A DNA stretch of 64,000 nt from Candidatus Saccharimonadota bacterium (GTDB taxonomy: Bacteria; Patescibacteriota; Saccharimonadia; Saccharimonadales; AWTP1-31), in the NCBI GenBank assembly GCA_003962975.1, contig RXKC01000003.1, positions 50,890 to 114,889 on the forward strand, written 5' to 3'. Below the pieces are notes generated by a model, which was not told the origin of the DNA, did no database searches, and saw only the letters and a list, made by a program, of their open reading frames with translations. The number at the start of each line of letters is the position of its first letter. The first letter of the stretch is position 1. The translations under genes and the position numbers were made by a program. Of this stretch, positions 1-51,245 are shown piece by piece.

Positions 1-864
1 CGTCAATGCTTCGCCTAGTGCAACAGCAATAGCTGCAGTTTGGTGGTTATGGGGGCCACCTTGCAGACCAGGAATGATCGCTCGGTCGATGAGGGATGGG
101 ATGTTCTCGACAGTTCGTTCTGGTTTTTTGAGAGGGTTAGATGGATTGCCATTAGCCAAGATGAGTGCACCGCGTGGACCACGGAGTGTTTTGTGTGTGG
201 TGGTCATAGTCACATCGACGATACCAATTGGCGATGGATGTACTCCTGCAACCACCAGACCAGCAATGTGCGAGATGTCGGCCGCCAAGAAAGCACCAAC
301 GCTGTCGGCAATCTTACGCAGCTTCTGCCAGTCGATGATACGTGGATAAGCAGTGGTACCGGCGATGATTAGCTTTGGTTTTTCCTGCAAGGCGAGTTCG
401 GCAATTGCGTCATAGTCTAGAAAGCCATCTTTGTCGGTAGTGTACTGTACAGAATTGTAAGTAGTACCAGAGAAGTTAACCTTCAAGCCATGCGTCATGT
501 GGCCACCGTAAAATAGACTCAGACCCATAACAGTGTCGCCTGGATCAACTAATGCAAAATAAATAGCTTGGTTTGCCGGGCTGCCAGAATAGGCCTGTAC
601 GTTTGCATGTGATACGCCAAAAAGTTCTTTAGCACGATCACGGGCAATGTTTTCGACTTGGTCGACAAATTCACAGCCACCATAGTAGCGCTGGCCCGGG
701 TAGCCCTCTGAATATTTGTCGGTGAGTCGACTGCCGAGTGCGGCGAGCACATCTGCTGACGTGTGGTTCTCGCTCGGGATCATCTCGAGACCCTCGACCT
801 GTCGTTTAGTTTCGGCCTTGATCAGTTTCTCAATAGCCTTATCTTTCATACTTGCTTGAGTCAT
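1..864 (-). CDS. glyA: serine hydroxymethyltransferase, N-terminal ~288 codons (3' part lies beyond the window start)
   Basis: Own reverse-strand translation from the ATG at 864: MTQASMKDKAIEKLIKAETKRQVEGLEMIPSENHTSADVLAALGSRLTDKYSEGYPGQRYYGGCEFVD ... TTHKTLRGPRG. These are classic SHMT motifs, including the PLP-lysine context. It is absent from the ORF track because it is open at the window edge. Confidence 0.95.
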   Translation of the reverse strand, partial: MTQASMKDKAIEKLIKAETKRQVEGLEMIPSENHTSADVLAALGSRLTDKYSEGYPGQRYYGGCEFVDQVENIARDRAKELFGVSHANVQAYSGSPANQAIYFALVDPGDTVMGLSLFYGGHMTHGLKVNFSGTTYNSVQYTTDKDGFLDYDAIAELALQEKPKLIIAGTTAYPRIIDWQKLRKIADSVGAFLAADISHIAGLVVAGVHPSPIGIVDVTMTTTHKTLRGPRGALILANGNPSNPLKKPERTVENIPSLIDRAIIPGLQGGPHNHQTAAIAVALGEALT

Positions 865-1099
865 AGTTGTTACCCCTCTATATCTCTAAGTTTTGTTGCT
901 TCGCTCGCGCCAAAAAGTTCTCTCTTACTTTTTGGCAGTGGTTATCGGGCGTAGCTAGATCATGTACTAATGTTACTGCATCTTTTCCAAAGTGAATACG
1001 GTAATAAATGCTACACCCCAAGAGCGTCACCTCGCCCAAGACTTGTCTTAGACAGTCTGTATGCAATACTGGTAGTAACGTTATCCATAAGGAATTCAT

Positions 1100-1858: not shown

Positions 1859-1937
1859 TAGCCCGTCCGTGAGATACCTCTTGTGGTAAATGTCAATATT
1901 GACCTTTATATCGTCCGGAGTATACTAACCGCTGATT

Positions 1938-3461
1938 ATGTCGACAACCAATGAGAAAATTGGCCAACTTATTTATCAGATAAGGCAAGATCGAGGCCTT
2001 ACTCAAGCTGCCTTTGCCAAGCAATTAGGTACCAGCCAGTCGGCGGTAAACCGTATTGAGCACGGCAAGCAAAACCTAAGCCTCGAAACTCTCGGTCGTA
2101 TCAGCGATGTGTTAAATAAGCCAATCATTCAGATTGGTGAAGGTGGCATTAACTTACGTGTTGAGGGTGGTCATGAATTGCACGGCAGTATTACCCTAAA
2201 AAAGAGTAAAAACGCCGCTGTCGCCCTGCTCTGCGCTAGCTTGTTGAATCACGGCATTACTCGCATCAAGTCTTTCCCTCGTATCGAAGAAGTTAACCGC
2301 ATTATCGAAGTGCTCGAAAGTATTGGCGTCAAAGTAAAGTGGTTACCCAATAATGACATCGAGATCCGTCGGCCAGCTAAGCTGGACATGGAAAAAATGG
2401 ATGCACCAGCTGCCCGCAAAACCCGCAGCGTACTGATGCTGCTGGGGCCATTGATGCACGAATTAACTAGCTTCAAGATCCCCTACGCCGGTGGCTGTAA
2501 GCTTGGCACCCGCACGGTTGAACCACATTTGCTAGCACTCGAGCAGTTTGGTGTAGGCGTCATCGCTCGTACTGGTCACTACGAAGTAGTGGTTGATAAA
2601 AAGAAACCCGTTGACCATGTCGTACTGTATGAAGCCGGTAACACTGTTACTAACAATGCCCTCATGGCAGCCGCTCGAACCAACGGCACAACCGTCATTC
2701 ACGGAGCTAGCGCTGACTATATGGTGCAAGATCTCTGCATGTTCTTAAAGCGCCTAGGCGTCAAAATCAGTGGTATTGGTTCATCGGTACTTACTATTGA
2801 AGGTACCGGGCCAATCAAAAAGAATATTACATTTGAGCCAACTGAAGATCCTATTGAGGCTATGTTCTTTATTTCTGCTGCTATTACCACTAATTCCCAC
2901 ATTACGATCAAGCGTGTGCCGATTGACTGGATTGCCCTCGAGCTCTTTAAGCTAAAGGTCATGGGCCTGAACTATAAGGCCAGCAAACGCTACCCTGCAG
3001 CCAATGACGTAACTGAGTTAGTTGATCTCGAAATTAATAAGCACAATGGCAATTTGGTCGCTCCGCGAGATAAATTGCACCCTAATTTGTGGCCAGGTAT
3101 TAACCCTGACAACATCCCCTATTTCGTCCCAATCGTCGCCGTTGCCAAAGGACGGACCCTGATTCATGACTGGATTTTTGAGAACCGCGCTATTTATTAC
3201 ACCGAGCTTACAAAGATCGGTGCCAACATCGAGTTAGCTGATCCACATCGTATTTACGTACATGGTCCAACTAAGTTTACAAAGGCAGATGTTGTCTGTC
3301 CGCCGGCCCTGCGTCCTGCCAGCTTGCTACTGATCGGTATGCTCGCCGCTGAAGGCACATCGATACTCCGTAACGTCTATACTATTAACAGAGGTTATGA
3401 AGATCTGGCCGAGCGATTGAACAGTCTTGGTGCATCGATAACCGTCCTTCACGAAATTTAA
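1938..3461 (+). CDS. murA: XRE-type HTH domain fused to UDP-N-acetylglucosamine 1-carboxyvinyltransferase (MurA/EPSP-synthase fold)
   Basis: Residues 8-62 (IRQDRGLTQAAFAKQLGTSQSAVNRIEHGKQNLSLETL) form an XRE/Cro HTH. The rest aligns to MurA: SKNAAVALLCASLL (Lys22 region), YAGGCKLGTRTVEPHL (catalytic Cys115/Arg120 loop) and IHDWIFENRAIYYTEL. It is one uninterrupted frame. Confidence 0.85.
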   Translation: MSTTNEKIGQLIYQIRQDRGLTQAAFAKQLGTSQSAVNRIEHGKQNLSLETLGRISDVLNKPIIQIGEGGINLRVEGGHELHGSITLKKSKNAAVALLCASLLNHGITRIKSFPRIEEVNRIIEVLESIGVKVKWLPNNDIEIRRPAKLDMEKMDAPAARKTRSVLMLLGPLMHELTSFKIPYAGGCKLGTRTVEPHLLALEQFGVGVIARTGHYEVVVDKKKPVDHVVLYEAGNTVTNNALMAAARTNGTTVIHGASADYMVQDLCMFLKRLGVKISGIGSSVLTIEGTGPIKKNITFEPTEDPIEAMFFISAAITTNSHITIKRVPIDWIALELFKLKVMGLNYKASKRYPAANDVTELVDLEINKHNGNLVAPRDKLHPNLWPGINPDNIPYFVPIVAVAKGRTLIHDWIFENRAIYYTELTKIGANIELADPHRIYVHGPTKFTKADVVCPPALRPASLLLIGMLAAEGTSILRNVYTINRGYEDLAERLNSLGASITVLHEI

Positions 3462-3554
3462 GCATAAGCGTGTTAAATATTATACTTGCATTTATCGCAA
3501 GTTAGTGAGATATTTCATAGCATATATAACGGGTGGGAAAATAGGAGAACTGCT

Positions 3555-6500
3555 ATGGTGCGACTGGGAGCCCGTTCGTTCAAAACAAAAACACTACTTT
3601 CAAGAGTAAAAAACACCGCGATTGCTGGTGTGTTTGCCGTGGTACAGCTTACACCTGCCGTTGTGCTGCCTGCCAAAGCAGCTGCAGCTACAACAGCGCC
3701 AACCAACCCAACCCTTACACAGGCTTGTGGTTTGGATATTGCCCTCGTTATCGATAACTCAAACAGTATTGATAATGGCGAAATGACCCAGATCAAGAAT
3801 GCCATGACTGGCTTTACCAACGCGCTTAACGGCACCCCTACCCAGTTCTCCGTTACTCGCTTTGGGACATCTGCAACTGTTTTGCGTAACTTTACTGCCA
3901 ACGTAGGCAATGTAAACAGTTCAATCAATGGCATCTCAACCGGTGGTGGTGGTACAAACTGGGAAGATGGTCTTCTCAAAGCCAGCGGCACCTTTGACCC
4001 ACGTGCCGACAAGCCAAACCTAGTAATCTTTGCTTCCGACGGTAACCCAACTTACCGAAACGACGGCAACGGCGGCATTGACGGAAACGGTTCAAGCGAT
4101 CCACTTGGCTACAACCTAGATAATGCTGTAGTTCGTGCCAACGCTATTAAAAGTGCAGGCACCCGTATCCTCGCTCTTGGTATCGGTGACGACCTAGATG
4201 TCAACAACCTCAAAGCTATTTCTGGCCCTAACGCCAACACCGGCAATGTTTTGACCTCTGACGTTATCACATCTAACTTTGCAACTCTTGCAAGCGACCT
4301 AGCTGCATTTGCACAGCAAACCTGTGGTGGCACCATTACAACTCAGAAGCTTATCGATGCCGACGGCAATCCTAACACTACAGACGATCGCACTCCTGCA
4401 GCTGGATGGACCTTTGATATCAACGGTTCACCAAGCAACCCTGCTGCTGAAGCTACTGCTGGCGTAAATGGTCAAACTTCAGCTGTGAAAGTACAAGCTG
4501 GTACATACAGTGTCAACGAAACTCCACAAGCCGGTTACGACATCCTGTCAGCAAGCTGTACTGGTGCCAATGCCAATGGCTCGCGTCAAGGCAACAGCAT
4601 CGTAGGTATTACTGTTGCTGATAGCAACATCGTCTCTTGCGTATTCGTCAACGCACCAAGCAAAGGCAGCGTAAAAGTCGACAAGAAACTCGACCTTGAC
4701 GGCGACGGTACATACGAAAGCGGCAACAGCGAAGCTCAAGCACGTAACATTTTCTGGAACCTCGACGGTGGCAGTAACACAACTTTTGGCGGTACTATCA
4801 GCAACGTTGCTGTTGGTAGCCACACCGTAAACGAAACAAGCGTCGTTGGCTACCACTTCACTGGCTGGTACCCAACCATGAATACACAGCAGCAGTCATG
4901 CGCTAACCCAGCTGGCACTACACTACCAGTAAATATCACTGTAAATTCTGGTGTCGCTACAGCCATTACTCTCTGTAATCAGCGTGATACCGGTAACCTA
5001 AAAGTTGTTAAGAAAGTCATTAATAATAATGGTGGTACTGCAGATGCAGATGACTTCACCCTCTATGTTAAAAAAGGTAGCACCAACGTAAGTGATAGCC
5101 CTGCAGCCGGCTCAGCGAGCGGCAAAACCTACAAGCTTCCTACCGATACGTACACCGTCAGCGAAGACGCCAAGACTGGCTATGCGCAGACTTCACTGGT
5201 TTGTAAAGATGATGTTACCGGCAATACTGTTACTCACCCTGTAGTGTTGGCTCGTGACCAAAAAGTCACCTGTACAATCACGAATGACGACAAAGCCCCA
5301 ACAGTTACCGTTACGAAAAAAGTAGTTAACCCATATGGTGTCCCACTTTCACCAACTGCCTTCCCTCTATACATCGATGGCACACCTGTTGTCAGCGGCA
5401 CTCCCTACACACAGTTCAACGCTGGCTGGCGAACTATTAGCGAAGATCAGCAGACCGGTTATGAGTTTGGTGGTGTGAGCGGCGACTGTCAGTATGGCAA
5501 CGACGTTATAAGCATCTTGCTCAGCCTTGATGCTCACGCAACCTGCACCATTACCAACACAGCCATTCAGCCAAAACTAATTGTTAAAAAGAAAGTCATC
5601 AACGATAACAGTGGCACAAAATCTGCTAGCGACTTCACCATGGTTGTTAGCGGCAACAGTGCCGTAGTACCAAACTTCCCTGGTAGCAGCTTTGGTCAGA
5701 GCGTTGGCCTCAACGAAGGCAGCTACAATGTCACCGAACTTGGCGCCGAAGGCTACAACGCCAGCTTCAGCGCCGACTGTTCAGGCACAATCAGTGTTGG
5801 CCAAACCAAGACTTGTGTCATCACGAACAATGACAAAGCAAACCCAAGCATTCACGTTGAGAAGTTCGGCCCAGGCACTGCACACGAAGGTGACGAGATC
5901 GTATACGTGTTCAAGGTAACCAACACCGGTGATACCACACTTGATAATGTAAACATCAGTGACGACATCGCATCTAACGAAACCTGTGACGATACCTCCC
6001 TGAACATTGGACAAACAACGACCTGTACTGCCACGTACACCGTACCAAGCCCACAGATTGCACACGTCGTAAACACCGTAACCGCTGAAGGCACTGACCC
6101 AGACGACACCACTGTTACTGATACTGACGACCACATCATGGACGTACTACATCCATCTATTAACGTCGAAAAGACTGGTCCTAACAGCGCCAACGCTGGC
6201 GACACCGTTACGTACACCTTTACGGTTACCAACACCGGCGATGTACCACTCAGCATCTACAGCGTCGAAGACAGCATCACTGGTGACGGTGAGTACGTCA
6301 GTGGCGACACCAACCTTAACGATGTTCTAGACCTAGACGAAACATGGATCTTTACGGGCAAATACACCATCCCGGTCAAGCAAACTGCACCAGTAGTTAA
6401 CACTGTTACAGCTTGCGGCTACGAGCAGTATTACTACGATGAAGAAGATGACCGAGATGACGTCCTAGAGCGACTCGTGATTCAAGATGACTTGCCAATT

Positions 6501-6713
6501 GCTCTGCCACCAGCAAACGCTCGTGACTGTGCAAGCGATAGCCACACTCTGACCATTAACCAAGTCCTCGGTGCAAGCATTAGCACACCTACACTAGCCG
6601 TAACCGGACAAGCCGTTAGTCAGACAACACTGGTTGCGTTGTTCGTAACTAGCACCCTGCTTGTTGCAGCTGCACTACGTGGTCAGCGAAATACCAAAAC
6701 AGACGAAGCATAA
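3555..6713 (+). CDS. large cell-surface adhesin: signal peptide, vWA domain, tandem prealbumin/SpaA-like domains, two DUF11-type repeats, LAVTG sorting signal
   Basis: ATG at 3555 is preceded by GGAGA, and is preferred over the TTG at 3486. The vWA MIDAS motif is DIALVIDNSNSID. Three ~95-aa repeats follow the pattern L.V.KKV.N.NGG...DF.L.V...Y.V.E...GY....C...C.ITN.DK. DUF11-like repeats are VEKxGPxxAxxGDxVxYxFxVTNTGD. The C-terminus has LAVTG (nt 6594-6608), a hydrophobic helix and RGQRNTK. Confidence 0.8.
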   Translation: MVRLGARSFKTKTLLSRVKNTAIAGVFAVVQLTPAVVLPAKAAAATTAPTNPTLTQACGLDIALVIDNSNSIDNGEMTQIKNAMTGFTNALNGTPTQFSVTRFGTSATVLRNFTANVGNVNSSINGISTGGGGTNWEDGLLKASGTFDPRADKPNLVIFASDGNPTYRNDGNGGIDGNGSSDPLGYNLDNAVVRANAIKSAGTRILALGIGDDLDVNNLKAISGPNANTGNVLTSDVITSNFATLASDLAAFAQQTCGGTITTQKLIDADGNPNTTDDRTPAAGWTFDINGSPSNPAAEATAGVNGQTSAVKVQAGTYSVNETPQAGYDILSASCTGANANGSRQGNSIVGITVADSNIVSCVFVNAPSKGSVKVDKKLDLDGDGTYESGNSEAQARNIFWNLDGGSNTTFGGTISNVAVGSHTVNETSVVGYHFTGWYPTMNTQQQSCANPAGTTLPVNITVNSGVATAITLCNQRDTGNLKVVKKVINNNGGTADADDFTLYVKKGSTNVSDSPAAGSASGKTYKLPTDTYTVSEDAKTGYAQTSLVCKDDVTGNTVTHPVVLARDQKVTCTITNDDKAPTVTVTKKVVNPYGVPLSPTAFPLYIDGTPVVSGTPYTQFNAGWRTISEDQQTGYEFGGVSGDCQYGNDVISILLSLDAHATCTITNTAIQPKLIVKKKVINDNSGTKSASDFTMVVSGNSAVVPNFPGSSFGQSVGLNEGSYNVTELGAEGYNASFSADCSGTISVGQTKTCVITNNDKANPSIHVEKFGPGTAHEGDEIVYVFKVTNTGDTTLDNVNISDDIASNETCDDTSLNIGQTTTCTATYTVPSPQIAHVVNTVTAEGTDPDDTTVTDTDDHIMDVLHPSINVEKTGPNSANAGDTVTYTFTVTNTGDVPLSIYSVEDSITGDGEYVSGDTNLNDVLDLDETWIFTGKYTIPVKQTAPVVNTVTACGYEQYYYDEEDDRDDVLERLVIQDDLPIALPPANARDCASDSHTLTINQVLGASISTPTLAVTGQAVSQTTLVALFVTSTLLVAAALRGQRNTKTDEA

Positions 6714-6916: not shown

Positions 6917-7891
6917 ATGGACACACAATGTTGTTTATACCTTGGTACCCGCGACCAGGGATTTTTTATGTCATATAACGAAACACTTCCAGTCGAATCG
7001 AGCGTAGCCGGACAACTCCCTTCTCCATCTCTTGGTATTGGCGAGCTTATGAATGCTAGCCCCGAGCAACAAGTGATTATTAACACTTACTCTGAAGCCT
7101 TTGCAGCTGGGCACGAGCTTGGCAGCCTGCTGGTAGCAGAAAGTATTGCTGAGGTATGGGATGCAAAGGCGCGGCTCGAAGAAAAAGTTACCAACCTTAC
7201 GGCACAACTTGATCTTGATCCAAAACTGGGCGTATTAAACTACACTGCGTTTACAAAAATTGCTCAGGAACTCATCAATGACCCAGATGCCCTCGCCGAT
7301 CGTGAGCACCAAAGTTTTGGACTTTTGGTGATTGATCTTGATGACTTCAAAGCCATTAATACAGCCCTCGGCTATGACCAAGCAGATGCCACATGCCTTA
7401 TCCCAACTGCAGAAATATTGCAGCGTTATTCTCAGCGCTCTGCCGACCTTGCCGGTGCAACAGCCAACCAAGATCCTGAAAAATCGCACACAGCCACCGA
7501 AGACATACCTAGCCATGCGTCAAAAGCTGGACGATTTGGCGGTGAAGAATTCGTGATGCTACTTGCCGGCGTTGACCGTAATGGTTTAACCGCCGTAGCC
7601 GAAAAAATCAAGAAAGAGATAAACGCTATCCGCTACGTTGTAGGCGACGAAGAAAATCAGCTCGGCGTCAGTATCGGCGCGATTGTATTACCTCCCGGTG
7701 CTGACTACACTATCGGTTTCCAACTGGCGACAGAAGCCCAAATGTCGGCCAAATTACACAAAGGCAAAAACCTTGTTGTTATGGCCTCTGCGTATTGTGA
7801 TCTTGTGATCGATGATTTAACGCTTAGAAACCAAATCGAGAGCGAGAGCTCTGACCAAACTGCTGCAACAACTCCTGCTGTTGCCGGCTAA
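6917..7891 (+). CDS. GGDEF-domain diguanylate cyclase (GGEEF active site), start uncertain (6917 or 6968)
   Basis: Motifs [22 protein letters not shown] ... [15 protein letters not shown]. There is no RxxD I-site five residues upstream of GGEEF. The N-terminal ~100 aa are coiled-coil-like with no recognisable sensor domain. Confidence 0.8.
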
Positions 7892-8933
7892 GCTTGGTAG
7901 GCGTATCAACTATAAGCGTAACAATGTGTGCACCGCGGCCATTACTGCGCAAATGCGGCACGCCATGACCAGATAGTTTAAAATCGGTTCCACTTTGCGT
8001 GCCTGCCGGCACCTTCATGCGTACCGGTCCGTCCACTGTTTGGACATCAATCTCAGTCCCCAATGCAGCTTCTACCATACCAATATGCTCTTCGCTTAAA
8101 ATCAAATCACCTTCACGCGTAAAGTGCTTGTGAGCTTTTACTCGAACGTGCACATACAGGTCACCCTTTGGACCATGAGCCATGGCTTCACCTTGCTCAC
8201 GCAAACGAATAGTTGCACCATCATCTATACCGGCAGGTATCTTAATCTTTATCGATTGTTGCTTAGCCTTGGTACCCTTGCCATGACAAACGCTACAAGC
8301 TTTTTCAGGAACCTTGCCAGTACCTTTACAGGTATGGCACACACTCGCCTGCTGAATATTACCAAAAATGGTCTGCGTCACCCGCATGGTTTGGCCTTGG
8401 CCTTTACACGTATTACACGTCTTTAGCTCATGACCAGGTTCGGCGGTTGTGCCTTTACAGTGCTCACAAGTGTCTTCGAGATTCACATGGATGTCGTGCT
8501 CTTTGCCAAAAATTGCTTCTTCAAATGTCAGGTCAACGTTGGTTTCGACATCACGTCCACGGCTACTGCGACGCTGACCACCACCAGCACCACCGCCAAA
8601 AAAGCTACCAAAAATATCTCCAAGTCCCAGGTCACCAAAGTCAAAGTTAACGTTTTGGCCACCAAAGCCGCCAGCACCACCGCCAAACGGGTTGCCTCCG
8701 TCACTAGCTGCACTCGTGCCGACACCGGCATGCCCAAACTGATCATAACGCTGTCGTTTTCGCTCATCCTTCAGGACTTCGTAGGCCTCGTTGACTTCTT
8801 TAAACTTAGCTTCATCACCGCCTTCTTTGTCAGGGTGATGCGCAACAGCTTTTTTGCGAAAGGCTTTTTTTATCTCGTCATCGCTGGCATCCTTGCCAAC
8901 TCCAAGGACATCATAGTAATCTCGCTTACTCAT
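7824..8933 (-). CDS. dnaJ: molecular chaperone DnaJ
   Basis: J domain (DYYDVLGV...HHPDK), a G/F-rich region, and four CxxCxGxG zinc-finger repeats. Confidence 0.95.
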
Positions 8934-9571
8934 TTATTCCCCAGCGCAACCTTAATGCCGAGGGCAATCAATACACCACCAAATACGCGGTCGATATAGT
9001 GCTTCCACTTGCCAACAAGTCCACTGACTCGATTGTGCGACAATACGACCGCGACAAAAGCAAACCACGCAAACGTTATGACAACCATTGCTAGACCGTA
9101 GACAATTTTGGCGATCAAGGCGGTGTCAGGCTGAATGACAGTAGTGAACACAGCCAAAAAGTACATGGTCGCTTTCGGGTTAAGGACATTGGTAATAAAA
9201 CCCATACGAATAGCTTGCGCAGTAGAAAGATCTTTTTTCGGTAAAGCTTTAGGCACGTCAGCCTGATCCTTATCGGCAGTATCAGATGCTTTCTTTGCAA
9301 GTAAGGCTTTAAATCCGATAAAAATCAGATACAACGCACCCGCCCACTTTATGGCGTTAAACAACATGACTGATTGTGAGATAAGCAATCCGATACCTAG
9401 CAGAGAATATAGGACATGCACAATGATACCCAGACCCAAACCCGCTGCCGCTAGTACACCCGTTCGGCGTGAATACACCAAAGAATTCCGTACGACCATA
9501 GCAAAGTCGGGACCAGGGCTCATAACGGCCAGCAAATGAATGCCTGCAATAAGTAGCAAACCTTGTATCAT
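8930..9571 (-). CDS. LysE/RhtB-family amino-acid exporter
   Basis: N-terminal [19 protein letters not shown] signature and a 6-TM layout typical of LysE/RhtB translocators. There is a 4-nt overlap with the dnaJ start. Confidence 0.85.
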
Positions 9572-9581
9572 AGGGATTATT

Positions 9582-9608
9582 TTAGCACTTAAGCATGTCG
9601 AGTGCTAG
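9582..9608 (-). promoter_or_regulatory. CIRCE (HrcA operator) between dnaK stop and lysE-like start
   Basis: TTAGCACTT-N9-GAGTGCTAG compared with the consensus TTAGCACTC-N9-GAGTGCTAA; the two arms are 8/9 mutually complementary. Confidence 0.7.
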
Positions 9609-9620
9609 ACAAGCACAGTG

Positions 9621-11546
9621 TTACTTTTCGTCTTTGTCTTTATTATCTTCGTCGACAACTTCGCCTTCGACAGGTTCATCTTTGTCAGATGCATCGGACT
9701 CACCGTCCTTTTCGTCATCAGCACCCTCAGCCTTAGCAGCTTCCTCGTACATTTTGGCACCAATTGGCATGATAGCGTCAGTCAATGTTTTGGCTGCAGC
9801 TTCTAGCTCGTCTTTGTCAGCCTTTTCATCGGCAACTACCTTTTTAGCAGCTTCGACTGCCTCGTCGATTGCTTTAGCGTCATCTTCCGAGATCTTATCT
9901 TTGTTGTCTGACTTCATCTTTTCAGCCTGGTAAATGGCACTGTCGAGTTGATTCTTGGCATCGATACCTTCACGCTTTTTCTTGTCTTCTTCAGCGTGTG
10001 CCTCAGCTTCTTTAGCCATCTTTTCGACCTCATCTTTCGAGAGCCCAGAACTACCCTGGATGGTAATGGTCTGCTCTTTGCCAGAACCCTTGTCTTTTGC
10101 TGTCACATTCAAGATACCGTTGGCGTCTAGGTTAAAGGTAACTTCAACTTGCGGAACACCGCGAGGTGCTGGAGGAATACCATCTAGAACAAAACGTCCT
10201 AGGCTTTTGTTGTCATTTACGAATTCACGCTCACCCTGTACAACGTGAATCTCTACCTGATTTTGGTTGTCGGCCGCAGTACTAAAGACTTCACTTTTGC
10301 TACTTGGAATTGTCGTATTTCGCTCGATCAACTTAGTTGCAACACCACCAAGTGTTTCAATACCAAGACTGAGAGGAGTTACATCGAGTAGTAACACATC
10401 TTTAACATCGCCTTGCAATACACCACCTTGAATGGCTGCACCAATGGCGACAACTTCGTCAGGGTTTACGCCCTGCATTGGATCTTTACCAAAAATCTTC
10501 TTAACCTTCTCAATCACCGCTGGCATACGGGTCATACCACCGACCAACACCACAGCGTCGATATCGCTTGCCTTGAGCTTAGCGTCTTTCAAAGCTTTCT
10601 CGCATGGTTTAGCGGTATTATCGATCAACTCAGCCACCAGGCTTTCTAGCTTGGCGCGAGTCAGCTTGTGCTCAAAGTGTTTTGGACCATCTGCATCAGC
10701 AGTTAGGAACGGAAGGTTAATGTCTACCTCTTTGGCAGTAGAAAGCTCGATCTTGGCTTTCTCGGCTTCATCTCGCAAGCGCTGCATAGCGGCTTTATCG
10801 TCAGTGACGTCTACGCCCGACTCTTTTTTAAACTCATCAGCTAGATAGTTTACAATTGTCCGGTCAAAGTCAGCACCGCCCAAGTGAGTGTCACCGTTAG
10901 TACTTTTCACTTCAAAGACGCCGTCTCCAAGTTCTAGGATTGATACATCGAAGGTACCACCACCAAGGTCAAAAACAGCAATTTTCTCGTCAGTCTTATC
11001 TTTATCAAGCCCGTAAGCAAGAGCTGCAGCAGTAGGCTCGTTAATAATACGCTTAACCTCTAAGCCAGCAATCTTACCTGCATCCTTAGTAGCTTGTCGT
11101 TGTGAGTCATCAAAGTAGGCTGGTACGGTAATAACTGCTTCGGTAACTGGGCCACCGGTAAAGGCTTCCGCATCGGTCTTGAGCTTTGCCAGTACCATGG
11201 CACTAATTTCTTCTGGGCTATATTCTTTATCACCCATTTTTACTTTTACTGAATTGCCGCTCTTCACGATCTCGTAGCCCATCAGTTTGAGATCGCGTTG
11301 CACTTCTTTATCGTTAAAGTTACGTCCGATAAGACGCTTCACTTCATAAATTGTATTGCCTGGATTGGTCACCATCTGACGACGTGCTACCTGTCCGACG
11401 AGGCGTTCACCATTTTTGTTGATAGCTACAACACTTGGAGTCGTTCGAGCTCCTTCACTGTTGGCGATAATCTCTGGTTTGCCTGACTGCATAACAGCCA
11501 TGGCTGAGTTAGTTGTACCAAGGTCGATGCCGATAATTTTACCCAT
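9621..11546 (-). CDS. dnaK: molecular chaperone DnaK (Hsp70)
   Basis: [17 protein letters not shown] and [10 protein letters not shown] motifs. The 641-aa protein ends in an acidic/lysine-rich C-terminal tail. Confidence 0.98.
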
Positions 11547-48688: not shown

Positions 48689-48754
48689 AGACTCAGATTA
48701 TACAGTAGGTGGTATCACCCACGAGAAGATCTTTGTTTGTTTATACTTTTAGGT

Positions 48755-50804: not shown

Positions 50805-51245
50805 ATGGCAATCGACCCACGCAGTTCGCTCGGTCAAAGTATTAGTGTTGGCGAACCGGTCACGATGAACTTGGGACAACTGAGCCCAGAAGCTGGCGAA
50901 CTTATCGCAACTCGTTGCGCAGATGGCACGCCCCGCGAAGAAGTCATTGCCAGACTCCTTGATCATACTAGCAGACTTATGGCTGATGGAGTTGTATCAA
51001 TAGACACTACTCAAATCTTTGCAGCACACCCAGATGTTGCCGATGCAGTCGACACTATGAGGGCAGCTACAGAAGAGCAAGGCGGCAGATTTAGGGTTAG
51101 CCATGCTCTCACACGCTTAATGGTTCGCGGAGCAAAACCAGCCGAAAGTACAACGTCAGACTTCCCTGGATCAGATGGCTCGCTTGCCGATCTGTTTGAC
51201 AGCTGGTTTTCGGGCGGAACTGATCGTACTAGACCCCGCCGATAA
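50805..51245 (+). CDS. hypothetical protein (146 aa)
   Basis: ORF with a GGAGAA RBS; no recognisable motif. Confidence 0.5.
   Translation: MAIDPRSSLGQSISVGEPVTMNLGQLSPEAGELIATRCADGTPREEVIARLLDHTSRLMADGVVSIDTTQIFAAHPDVADAVDTMRAATEEQGGRFRVSHALTRLMVRGAKPAESTTSDFPGSDGSLADLFDSWFSGGTDRTRPRR

Follow-up and report, generated by a model that had tools for sequence, protein, structure and literature searches.

The fusion gene and its distribution

The 64-kb window analyzed here, by which is meant the whole stretch of 64,000 nucleotides (nt) at positions 50,890 to 114,889 of contig RXKC01000003.1 (Candidatus Saccharimonadota bacterium, assembly GCA_003962975.1), harbors a gene whose product joins an N-terminal helix-turn-helix (HTH) domain of the XRE type to MurA, and whose predicted promoter overlaps a candidate operator. 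The fusion gene and its parts, with coordinates counted from the first letter of the window and amino acids (aa) from the first residue of the product, are as follows.

1938 to 3461, plus strand: HTH-MurA fusion gene; ATG start, one uninterrupted open reading frame (ORF) of 507 codons plus stop
1971 to 2126, plus strand: XRE/Cro-C1 helix-turn-helix domain, aa 12 to 63 (Pfam HTH_3)
2127 to 2153, plus strand: linker, aa 64 to 72, predicted to be flexible (predicted local distance difference test score [pLDDT] below 50 for aa 64 to 68)
2154 to 3446, plus strand: MurA (UDP-GlcNAc 1-carboxyvinyltransferase) domain, aa 73 to 503 (NF006873, residue mapping, and structural model)

The in-frame fusion of an XRE-type HTH to MurA had been recognized in a preliminary description of the window, and it was borne out by Pfam, NCBIfam, and solved-structure matches, the ORF at 1938 to 3461 being as described. 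HTH_3 (PF01381) matched aa 12 to 63 with an E value of 5.4e-15 and a score of 55.6 bits (cutoff, 23), and EPSP_synthase (PF00275) matched aa 75 to 494 with an E value of 2.4e-40 over the full length of the model (positions 1 to 417 of 417). Among the NCBIfam models, the MurA subfamily NF006873 was exceeded (318.7 bits; cutoff, 297), and the scores for the stricter MurA equivalog TIGR01072 (303.9 bits; cutoff, 392.7) and for NF009470 (206.5; cutoff, 552) lay below threshold. The best matches of the window protein among solved structures were all MurA (5ujs, 4e-54; 1uae, 2e-47), and no single NCBIfam model spanned both the HTH and the MurA domain in the scan of this protein. Fusion proteins of this kind are currently named either “UDP-N-acetylglucosamine 1-carboxyvinyltransferase” or “helix-turn-helix domain-containing protein,” so that the putative regulatory half is invisible in the databases.

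The apparently intact MurA active site claimed in the same description stood up to residue mapping, for which Escherichia coli residue numbering was transferred via a HMMER alignment and a MAFFT alignment: K22, N23, R91, C115, R120, D305, R331, R371, and R397 are all kept, and the peptides that had been quoted (GLTQAAFAKQLGTSQSAVNRIEHGKQNLSLETL, KKSKNAAV, YAGGCKLGTRT, and GINPDNIPYF) are all found in the window protein. The corresponding window residues are K91 (K22), N92 (N23), R163 (R91), C187 (C115), R192 (R120), H197 (H125), D391 (D305), R417 (R331), L458 (L370), R459 (R371), and R485 (R397). The catalytic Cys187, representing the fosfomycin-target cysteine, is encoded by TGT at 2496 to 2498, and the residues that set MurA apart from other enolpyruvyl transferases are present. 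D369 is the sole mapped MurA residue to be replaced (by Pro or Ala, depending on the alignment); because the same replacement is also present in stand-alone relatives within the MurA clade of the fusion, it is regarded as a trait of that clade and not as decay.

An AlphaFold model of the window protein, built on 69 sequences, has a mean pLDDT of 89.6 and contains a four-helix HTH at aa 4 to 59, with helices at aa 4 to 18, 23 to 30, 34 to 41, and 49 to 59. The modeled MurA body superimposes on solved MurA structures with template modeling (TM) scores of 0.90 to 0.94, normalized to the target, and the N-terminal extension is absent from every solved MurA structure compared with the model.

As judged from sequence comparisons, the HTH-MurA fusion is lineage typical, reaches far beyond the Saccharibacteria, and represents an old and widespread architecture. 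More than 200 independent assemblies encode this architecture of approximately 505 aa, including those of Saccharibacteria, Paceibacterota, Doudnabacteria, other Patescibacteria, and Nonomuraea, as well as other high-GC contigs. The best 120 homologues of the window protein, drawn from NCBI, JGI, ENA, and Logan assemblies, are all 506 to 529 aa in length and possess both HTH and EPSP_synthase domains at 76 to 100% identity. In the genome-locus set, the 45 loci returned by a scan of one representative genome per species, the fusion is encoded at 43 loci with 60 to 90% identity to the window protein, the other two being a Paceibacterota stand-alone MurA that matches aa 71 to 504 only (L040) and a truncated 3′ fragment (L041). 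Except for L039 (“uncultured bacterium”) and L040, the record titles of the 45 loci name Saccharibacteria, Saccharimonadales, or Saccharimonadia. The same fusion is present in 80 further metagenome loci (57 to 78% identity), and a search of 1.84 billion cluster representatives returned more full-length fusions at 34 to 55% identity, together with stand-alone relatives at 42 to 57%. When the distant fusion P0127 was applied as the query, the 120 matches listed were approximately 500 to 530 aa long with both domains present, and 113 of the matches listed kept the full K22-N23-R91-C115-R120-D305-R331-R371-R397 signature; those with names belonged to Paceibacterota, Liptonbacteria, Taylorbacteria, Colwellbacteria, Doudnabacteria, Parcubacteria, and the “Patescibacteria group.” Most non-Saccharibacteria fusions share 50 to 58% identity with the window protein.

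The Nonomuraea copy, P0121, is 509 aa long, shares 55% identity with the window protein, and belongs to a cluster of 246 members with WP_ accessions, which are named either MurA or “helix-turn-helix domain-containing protein.” At L046 (Nonomuraea sp. NEAU-A123, GCA_018603905.1), it occupies positions 8001 to 9530, carries a Cys at the C115 position, and lies between a formyltransferase/enoyl-CoA hydratase-like gene on its upstream side and a phage-type integrase gene on its downstream side, a context which suggests an accessory and possibly transferred copy. Close relatives of P0121 were observed on metagenome contigs of 67 to 73% GC (L119, L123, L124, L126, L127, L129, L132, and L134).

A palindrome at the fusion promoter

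The region immediately upstream of the fusion gene contains the following predicted features.

1899 to 1904, plus strand: −35-like hexamer TTGACC of the murA promoter (promoter scan)
1908 to 1923, no strand assigned: candidate operator ATATC-GTCCGG-AGTAT, with one mismatch to ATAYC-N6-GRTAT; ends 14 nt before the ATG
1921 to 1926, plus strand: −10 hexamer TATACT; ends 11 nt before the ATG
1874 to 1889, no strand assigned: ATACCTCTTGTGGTAA, a further match to the motif with one mismatch, 34 nt upstream of the candidate operator and of doubtful status

The two hexamers form a promoter-like sequence, TTGACC-16 nt-TATACT, at 1899 to 1926, with 10 of 12 matches in the promoter scan. A palindrome search of 1859 to 1937, an interval singled out in the preliminary description, yielded the operator-like site at 1908 to 1923 over the −10 hexamer; this candidate operator occupies part of the promoter spacer and shares its last 3 nt with the start of the hexamer. 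No Shine-Dalgarno sequence is present between the −10 hexamer and the ATG of the window gene (TATACTAACCGCTGATTATG), and because the hexamer ends only 11 nt before the start codon, the fusion transcript is probably leaderless or endowed with a leader of only a few (approximately 5) nt.

The second motif copy has no counterpart upstream in the closest relatives (L001, L002, and L029), and a 22-bp palindrome (TAAATGTCAAT/ATTGACCTTTA) at 1887 to 1908, which overlaps the −35 hexamer, was discounted on the same grounds. The upstream context of the window murA also differs from that of the closest relatives, in that a gene encoding a 252-aa membrane protein (1100 to 1858) is located between glyA and murA. 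Across the window, the motif with at most one mismatch occurs 10 times, against 4.6 expected; two of these matches lie at the murA promoter, and all others are intracoding except that at 48700 to 48715. The latter, located before a methylpurine-DNA glycosylase gene and without a following −10 hexamer, was taken as a chance occurrence, and a regulon within the window was rejected.

Alignment of the 140 nt before the start codon in the genome loci revealed a 16-bp palindrome, ATAYC-N6-GRTAT, whose end lies 12 to 14 nt from the ATG in almost every Saccharibacteria locus. Its right half-site contributes the TAT with which the −10 hexamer (TATAAT, TATACT, or TATATT) opens, and its left half-site falls within the promoter spacer. 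The exact palindrome is present at the fusion promoter in 27 genome loci, in which just 2 other exact matches occur, and is likewise present in 46 of the 80 metagenome loci, with 11 more carrying it with one mismatch at an equal distance from the start. Over the total set used for motif counting (134 loci; 945,534 bases), 77 of 93 exact matches lie at most 60 nt upstream of the fusion gene, compared with rough expectations by composition (approximately 7e-6 per position in AT-rich DNA) of approximately 7 for the whole set and approximately 0.02 at promoters. Of the 16 remaining exact matches, 12 are also linked to the fusion gene (8 in the HTH coding region of one subclade, 3 at 70 to 130 nt upstream of the fusion gene, and 1 that heads a fusion operon [L050]), and the last 4 are no more than chance would produce.

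In a position profile of 43 nonredundant upstream regions, the half-sites carry 0.7 to 2.0 bits per position and the six spacer positions 0 to 0.7, with T-A-T-A-n-T conserved at motif positions 13 to 18 and a weak TTG signal at −35. The left half-site, at 0.7 to 1.4 bits per position versus about 0.3 to 0.5 for the −35 TTG, far exceeds a core promoter element in conservation on this profile, and core promoters have no element at its position. That the spacer and flanks are randomized speaks for selection acting on the half-sites themselves. A tally by hand of how the Y and the R of the left and right half-sites, respectively, combine (C/G, 8; T/A, 10; T/G, 8; C/A, 2) revealed a weak association, and this co-variation was not used as evidence.

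Distant fusions which bear the site range from 34 to 43% identity to the window protein. The palindrome ATATCATATATGATAT is found at both L047 (P0127, 41% identity), where it ends 12 nt before the ATG, and L051 (P0131, 43%), while L049 (P0163, 36%) carries ATATCAAATATGATAT and L048 (P0136, 36%) carries the variant ATAACATATATGCTAT before the fusion gene. At L050 (P0145, 36%), the site is located upstream of the first gene of an operon encoding a NUDIX protein, an NTP-transferase, and the fusion. In Nonomuraea (69% GC), ATCTCATATGTGAGAT is found 13 nt before the fusion ATG, and most of the other contigs of 67 to 73% GC possess an AT-rich palindrome, ATCTC-N6-GAGAT or GATCT, at the equivalent place, which is not evident in L119. 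The palindrome is absent upstream of the stand-alone relatives at L040, L053 (P0126), and L054 (P0128), and also upstream of P0132, a MurA whose N-terminal extension yields no HTH match in Pfam.

Two further occurrences of the palindrome were observed. At the locus of P0132 (L052), an exact copy (ATACCCCTAGGGGTAT) at 4281 to 4296 is followed by AAT and, 10 nt later, by the ATG of a VTT/DedA-family membrane protein gene (4310 to 5017), an arrangement matching that of the fusion promoters; this single case may be due to chance or may be a lead to a wider regulon. One subclade, whose proteins share 57 to 59% identity with that of the window, has a further exact palindrome (ATATCAGYYTTGATAT) within the fusion gene itself, approximately 136 to 142 nt past the position aligned with the first codon of the window protein, in the N-I-S-L/F-D-M codons of the HTH (at 4119 to 4134 in L110, L114, L118, and L122, and at 1006, 2489, 541, and 975 in L112, L115, L116, and L121, respectively). 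Its half-sites are fixed and its spacer is variable, and it could represent a second operator involved in looping, a roadblock, or a by-product of a conserved peptide; the window gene is without such an internal copy.

The protein side of the presumed contact is also conserved. The recognition helix of the window protein lies within T32 to N46 (TSQSAVNRIEHGKQN), and its consensus, TSQSAVxRxExGxQN, is nearly invariant. R16, T22, Q23, T32, Q34, S35, R39, E41, G43, and N46 are invariant in 69 sequences at 50 to 83% identity and are 98 to 100% conserved across 121 fusion sequences, these positions being located in helix 2 and the recognition helix. All of them are kept in eight catalytically decayed paralogues (see below), a pattern which points to selection on the HTH for DNA reading.

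Decayed paralogues and neighboring genes

The loss of catalytic residues was observed in a distinct subset of fusions. In P0127, P0131, P0136, and P0286 to P0290, R91, the C115 loop, R120, R371, and R397 are lost, and K22 is often lost too; in P0140, P0145, P0162, and P0163, catalytic residues are lost in other ways. This decayed offshoot keeps the operator alongside the HTH. At L047 (4624 to 7503), L048 (3768 to 6740), and L051 (95 to 5003), the decayed copy lies divergent from a canonical stand-alone murA which is accompanied by murB or a Mur ligase gene, and Mur ligase or Ddl genes follow the decayed copy itself. No other locus in the entire set has a second murA close by: such a gene is absent from the flanks of every intact-fusion locus and was not found within the 64-kb window either, the search having covered the window and the locus flanks only.

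Judging by their residues and gene context, the decayed copies have the appearance of pseudo-enzymes dedicated to the regulation of peptidoglycan precursor genes; where a separate enzyme is present, the fused copy would be free to become a pure sensor or regulator of cell wall precursor genes. Conversely, a fused copy with invariant catalytic residues, such as that of the window, has most likely remained the enzyme. In a neighbor-joining tree, all fusions and some stand-alone MurAs form one clade with 100% bootstrap support, and the canonical murA neighbors fall outside it; the inner nodes are weak (11 to 51%) and compatible with either a single or a multiple origin or loss of the HTH.

The genes surrounding the fusion in the window are the following.

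3 to 864, minus strand: glyA (serine hydroxymethyltransferase), divergent neighbor of the murA region
1100 to 1858: membrane-protein gene, 252 aa, no Pfam match
3486 to 6713, plus strand: predicted surface protein, 1,075 aa, with a VWA domain and several SpaA/prealbumin-like and DUF7507 repeats; directly downstream of murA
6917 to 7891, plus strand: GGDEF-domain protein, next after the surface protein
7824 to 11546, minus strand: dnaJ (by eye), a small ORF at the grpE position, and dnaK (Pfam)

The C terminus of the 1,075-aa surface protein displays an LAVTG motif, a hydrophobic stretch, and a basic tail, which by eye constitute a sortase-type anchor signal. The region upstream of glyA (865 to 1099, minus strand) contains a conserved core, GTAGCTAGATCATG, at 951 to 964 and a hairpin at approximately 905 to 932, and an Rfam scan of this intergenic region returned no family match. 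Approximately 60 to 100 nt upstream of the glyA ATG, a conserved −10-like hexamer, TACAAT, is followed 5 to 6 nt later by a mini-ORF of two codons, ATG-ATY/ATA-stop (Met-Ile-stop), of which both the Ile codon (ATT, ATC, or ATA) and the stop codon (TAG, TAA, or TGA) vary from locus to locus, as though conservation acted on the small reading frame as such. An element of the glyA type is also located approximately 60 to 170 nt upstream of the fusion gene in L001, L005, L006, L009 to L011, L014 to L018, L021, L024, L029 to L033, and L044. The glyA upstream element may be a leaderless start-Ile-stop element or a conserved leader which controls glyA.

Proposed function and its relation to known systems

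We consider it likely, from sequence comparison, that the window protein is a bifunctional “trigger enzyme,” i.e., an active MurA that is also the repressor of its own promoter. Its C-terminal 430 aa would function as MurA, transferring the enolpyruvyl moiety of phosphoenolpyruvate (PEP) to UDP-N-acetylglucosamine (UDP-GlcNAc) in the committed step of peptidoglycan synthesis, and its N-terminal XRE-type HTH would enable the same polypeptide to repress its own promoter. Two HTH domains, presumably brought together in a dimer, would contact the half-sites of ATAYC-N6-GRTAT, whose centers are 11 bp (one helical turn) apart, and the bound protein would cover the −10 hexamer through the right half-site and the spacer through the left half-site, thus excluding RNA polymerase. 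The predicted outcome is that MurA dosage would be under negative autoregulation, by way of a transcript that is short or leaderless. We infer the binding of the HTH to the site, repression as opposed to activation, dimerization, enzyme activity, and the status of the fusion as the sole murA.

The inheritance of the palindrome with the HTH genes, coupled with a near-invariant DNA-reading helix, represents a textbook signature, in comparative genomics, of a transcription factor that controls its own gene. Of the roles which the preliminary description had considered for the HTH, autoregulation is the one favored by the comparative evidence, the operator being found at a fixed place in distant relatives and missing before stand-alone ones. 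More speculatively, and in analogy to BirA, the ligand state of MurA might tune DNA binding or dimerization, so that promoter occupancy would report precursor supply; MurA switches between open and closed forms in response to UDP-GlcNAc and is trapped in a tight complex by UDP-N-acetylmuramic acid (UDP-MurNAc) together with the PEP-Cys115 adduct (PDB 3su9, 3swd, 3swe, and 8d84).

Several observations weigh against a self-repressing, active MurA. On the DNA side, the right half-site of the window's own operator is AGTAT, with one mismatch, and the right half-site is in any case partly conserved as the −10 hexamer; the left half-site is weak in about one fifth of loci, and one Saccharibacteria subclade has ATGCA-N6-GATAT instead. 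The loci are, furthermore, phylogenetically related, and the motif counts overstate the number of independent events. No co-variation is apparent between the recognition helix and the ATATC/ATCTC operator variants, the helix being identical in both groups. As regards the protein, the linker is disordered in the AlphaFold model (aa 64 to 68, pLDDT below 50), there is no precedent among solved MurA structures for a dimer that would set two HTHs on a palindrome, and full MurA activity is not guaranteed, given the missed TIGR01072 cutoff and the replacement of D369.

The missed TIGR01072 cutoff would also suit an alternative in which the Saccharibacteria fusion has ceased to be the housekeeping enzyme and acts as a sensor and repressor derived from MurA, the chemistry being left to another, canonical murA elsewhere in the genome, a division of labor displayed by the relatives P0127, P0131, and P0136, whose decayed sites are found beside canonical murA genes. 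We nevertheless regard this alternative as unlikely, since the nine catalytic and substrate-binding residues are invariant in Saccharibacteria and most other Patescibacteria fusions and are lost where a second murA adjoins, since no second murA is present in the window or in the flanks of intact-fusion loci, and since stand-alone MurAs of the same clade share both the D369 replacement and the low scores.

A slightly less probable alternative is that the HTH serves in dimerization, localization, or protein-protein contact, with the palindrome belonging to the core promoter or to another factor. The position of the right half-site over the −10 hexamer, which renders its conservation partly trivial, is compatible with this, yet the left half-site reaches its 0.7 to 1.4 bits per position in a spacer where no core element is expected, and the site follows the HTH genes across Patescibacteria classes and into actinobacterial DNA of 70% GC, while it is missing before HTH-less relatives. 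That the HTH might be a mere dimerization or localization module, as the preliminary description had allowed, is also disfavored by the placement of the invariant residues in helix 2 and the recognition helix, where they would read DNA and are invariant even in catalytically decayed paralogues.

It is very improbable that the HTH is of the HipB/Y4mF type and that the fusion forms part of a toxin-antitoxin or defense arrangement: the best NCBIfam match of the HTH is indeed TIGR03070 (Y4mF antitoxin subfamily; E = 1.3e-13), with weaker matches to HipB, HigA, and PezA and with HipB(Lp) among the PDB matches, but the TIGR03070 score (50.6 bits) is below the cutoff of 71.65, the partner domain is a conserved housekeeping enzyme, and no toxin gene adjoins, the neighbors encoding a membrane protein without a Pfam match and the VWA/SpaA surface protein. 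This toxin-antitoxin reading was rejected on account of the below-cutoff scores and the lack of an adjacent toxin gene. Finally, a frameshift or misassembly which merged a small XRE regulator gene with murA, raised at the outset as a possible source of the fusion, can be excluded with near certainty, as the ORF is continuous in all of the best 120 homologues (506 to 529 aa, from four data sources), in 43 of 45 species-representative loci, and in 80 metagenome contigs, and the linker is itself conserved (I63, I64, and I66 align with residues common to 62 to 77% of sequences).

For the favored enzyme-repressor, the closest analogues by mechanism would be BirA, PutA, and NadR, and the closest by layout BzdR. 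BirA, being both biotin protein ligase and repressor of the bio operon, is, alongside PutA and NadR, a paradigm of the trigger enzymes, and its ligand state controls dimerization and DNA binding. Two publications describe it as a bifunctional ligase and repressor (PMC6391492 and PMC4877710). The window protein resembles BirA in combining an N-terminal HTH-type domain with a metabolic enzyme in one polypeptide and in having a palindromic operator, here a predicted one, at a promoter of its own pathway. It differs in its HTH (XRE/Cro-C1 versus winged HTH), in enzyme fold and pathway, in that its own promoter is its only supported target, and in that its co-repressor and dimerization are hypothetical.

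BzdR, the repressor of benzoyl-CoA metabolism in Azoarcus, resembles the fusion in layout, with an XRE HTH at the N terminus, a linker, and a C-terminal domain derived from an enzyme; the effector domain of BzdR is, however, shikimate kinase-like, whereas that of the fusion has the MurA/EPSP synthase fold and appears to retain catalysis in the window protein. The window protein is not a member of the BzdR family, as it scores 25.3 bits with the BzdR-type model NF006015 (cutoff, 204), through the HTH part only. BzdR-type regulators have been argued to arise from an enzyme which recruited a DNA-binding domain and then lost catalysis, and a bifunctional BzdR chimera has been built as a “missing link” (PMC3602430). 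The HTH-MurA family appears, on the basis of its catalytic residues, to hold both stages in nature, i.e., intact fusions and decayed ones beside canonical murA.

With the canonical stand-alone MurA of E. coli and E. cloacae, and with MurAA/MurA1 of Firmicutes, the fusion shares its fold, its catalytic residues, and presumably the reaction; it is distinguished from these by 72 extra N-terminal residues with the HTH, by its placement in a separate clade with 100% bootstrap support, and by the replacement of D369. The two-domain inside-out alpha/beta barrel fold is also common to NikO (4fqd, 1.3e-17; TM scores of 0.81 to 0.83) and AroA/EPSP synthase, but these matches are far weaker than those to MurA (TIGR01356 for aroA, 65.5 bits; cutoff, 287). 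Control of MurA in model bacteria is posttranslational, through ClpCP proteolysis with ReoM and PrkA in Firmicutes and through feedback by UDP-MurNAc, and to our knowledge a fused transcription factor domain is not known for MurA of model bacteria. No description of the HTH-MurA fusion was found in the literature, whose coverage here was incomplete, and the fusion appears to be undescribed in the literature searched.

A broader proposal, which we advance tentatively and with rather less confidence than self-repression in the window itself, is that a one-protein MurA feedback loop operates across much of the Patescibacteria and in some Actinobacteria, in which MurA would hold the deeply conserved operator ATAYC-N6-GRTAT on its own −10 element more or less tightly depending on UDP-GlcNAc, PEP, or UDP-MurNAc, and that the family displays a progression from enzyme, through bifunctional enzyme-repressor, to catalytically dead sensor-regulator of murA, murB, and Mur ligase genes. 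Actinobacteria are known hosts of Saccharibacteria, and the shared operator position in the Nonomuraea and other high-GC copies hints at gene transfer between Patescibacteria and Actinobacteria, in either direction.

Patescibacteria represent a large share of bacterial diversity, have tiny genomes with few recognizable transcription factors, and are almost unstudied with respect to gene regulation. Self-repression of MurA, if true, would constitute a conserved circuit in these organisms with a defined operator, an overlap with the −10 hexamer, and little or no leader, and a fused DNA-binding domain through which the enzyme controls its own transcription would be a novelty at the committed step of cell wall synthesis. 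The presence of intact and decayed members in one family would, moreover, provide a natural example of the emergence of enzyme-derived regulators, which was earlier reconstructed only artificially, for BzdR (PMC3602430).

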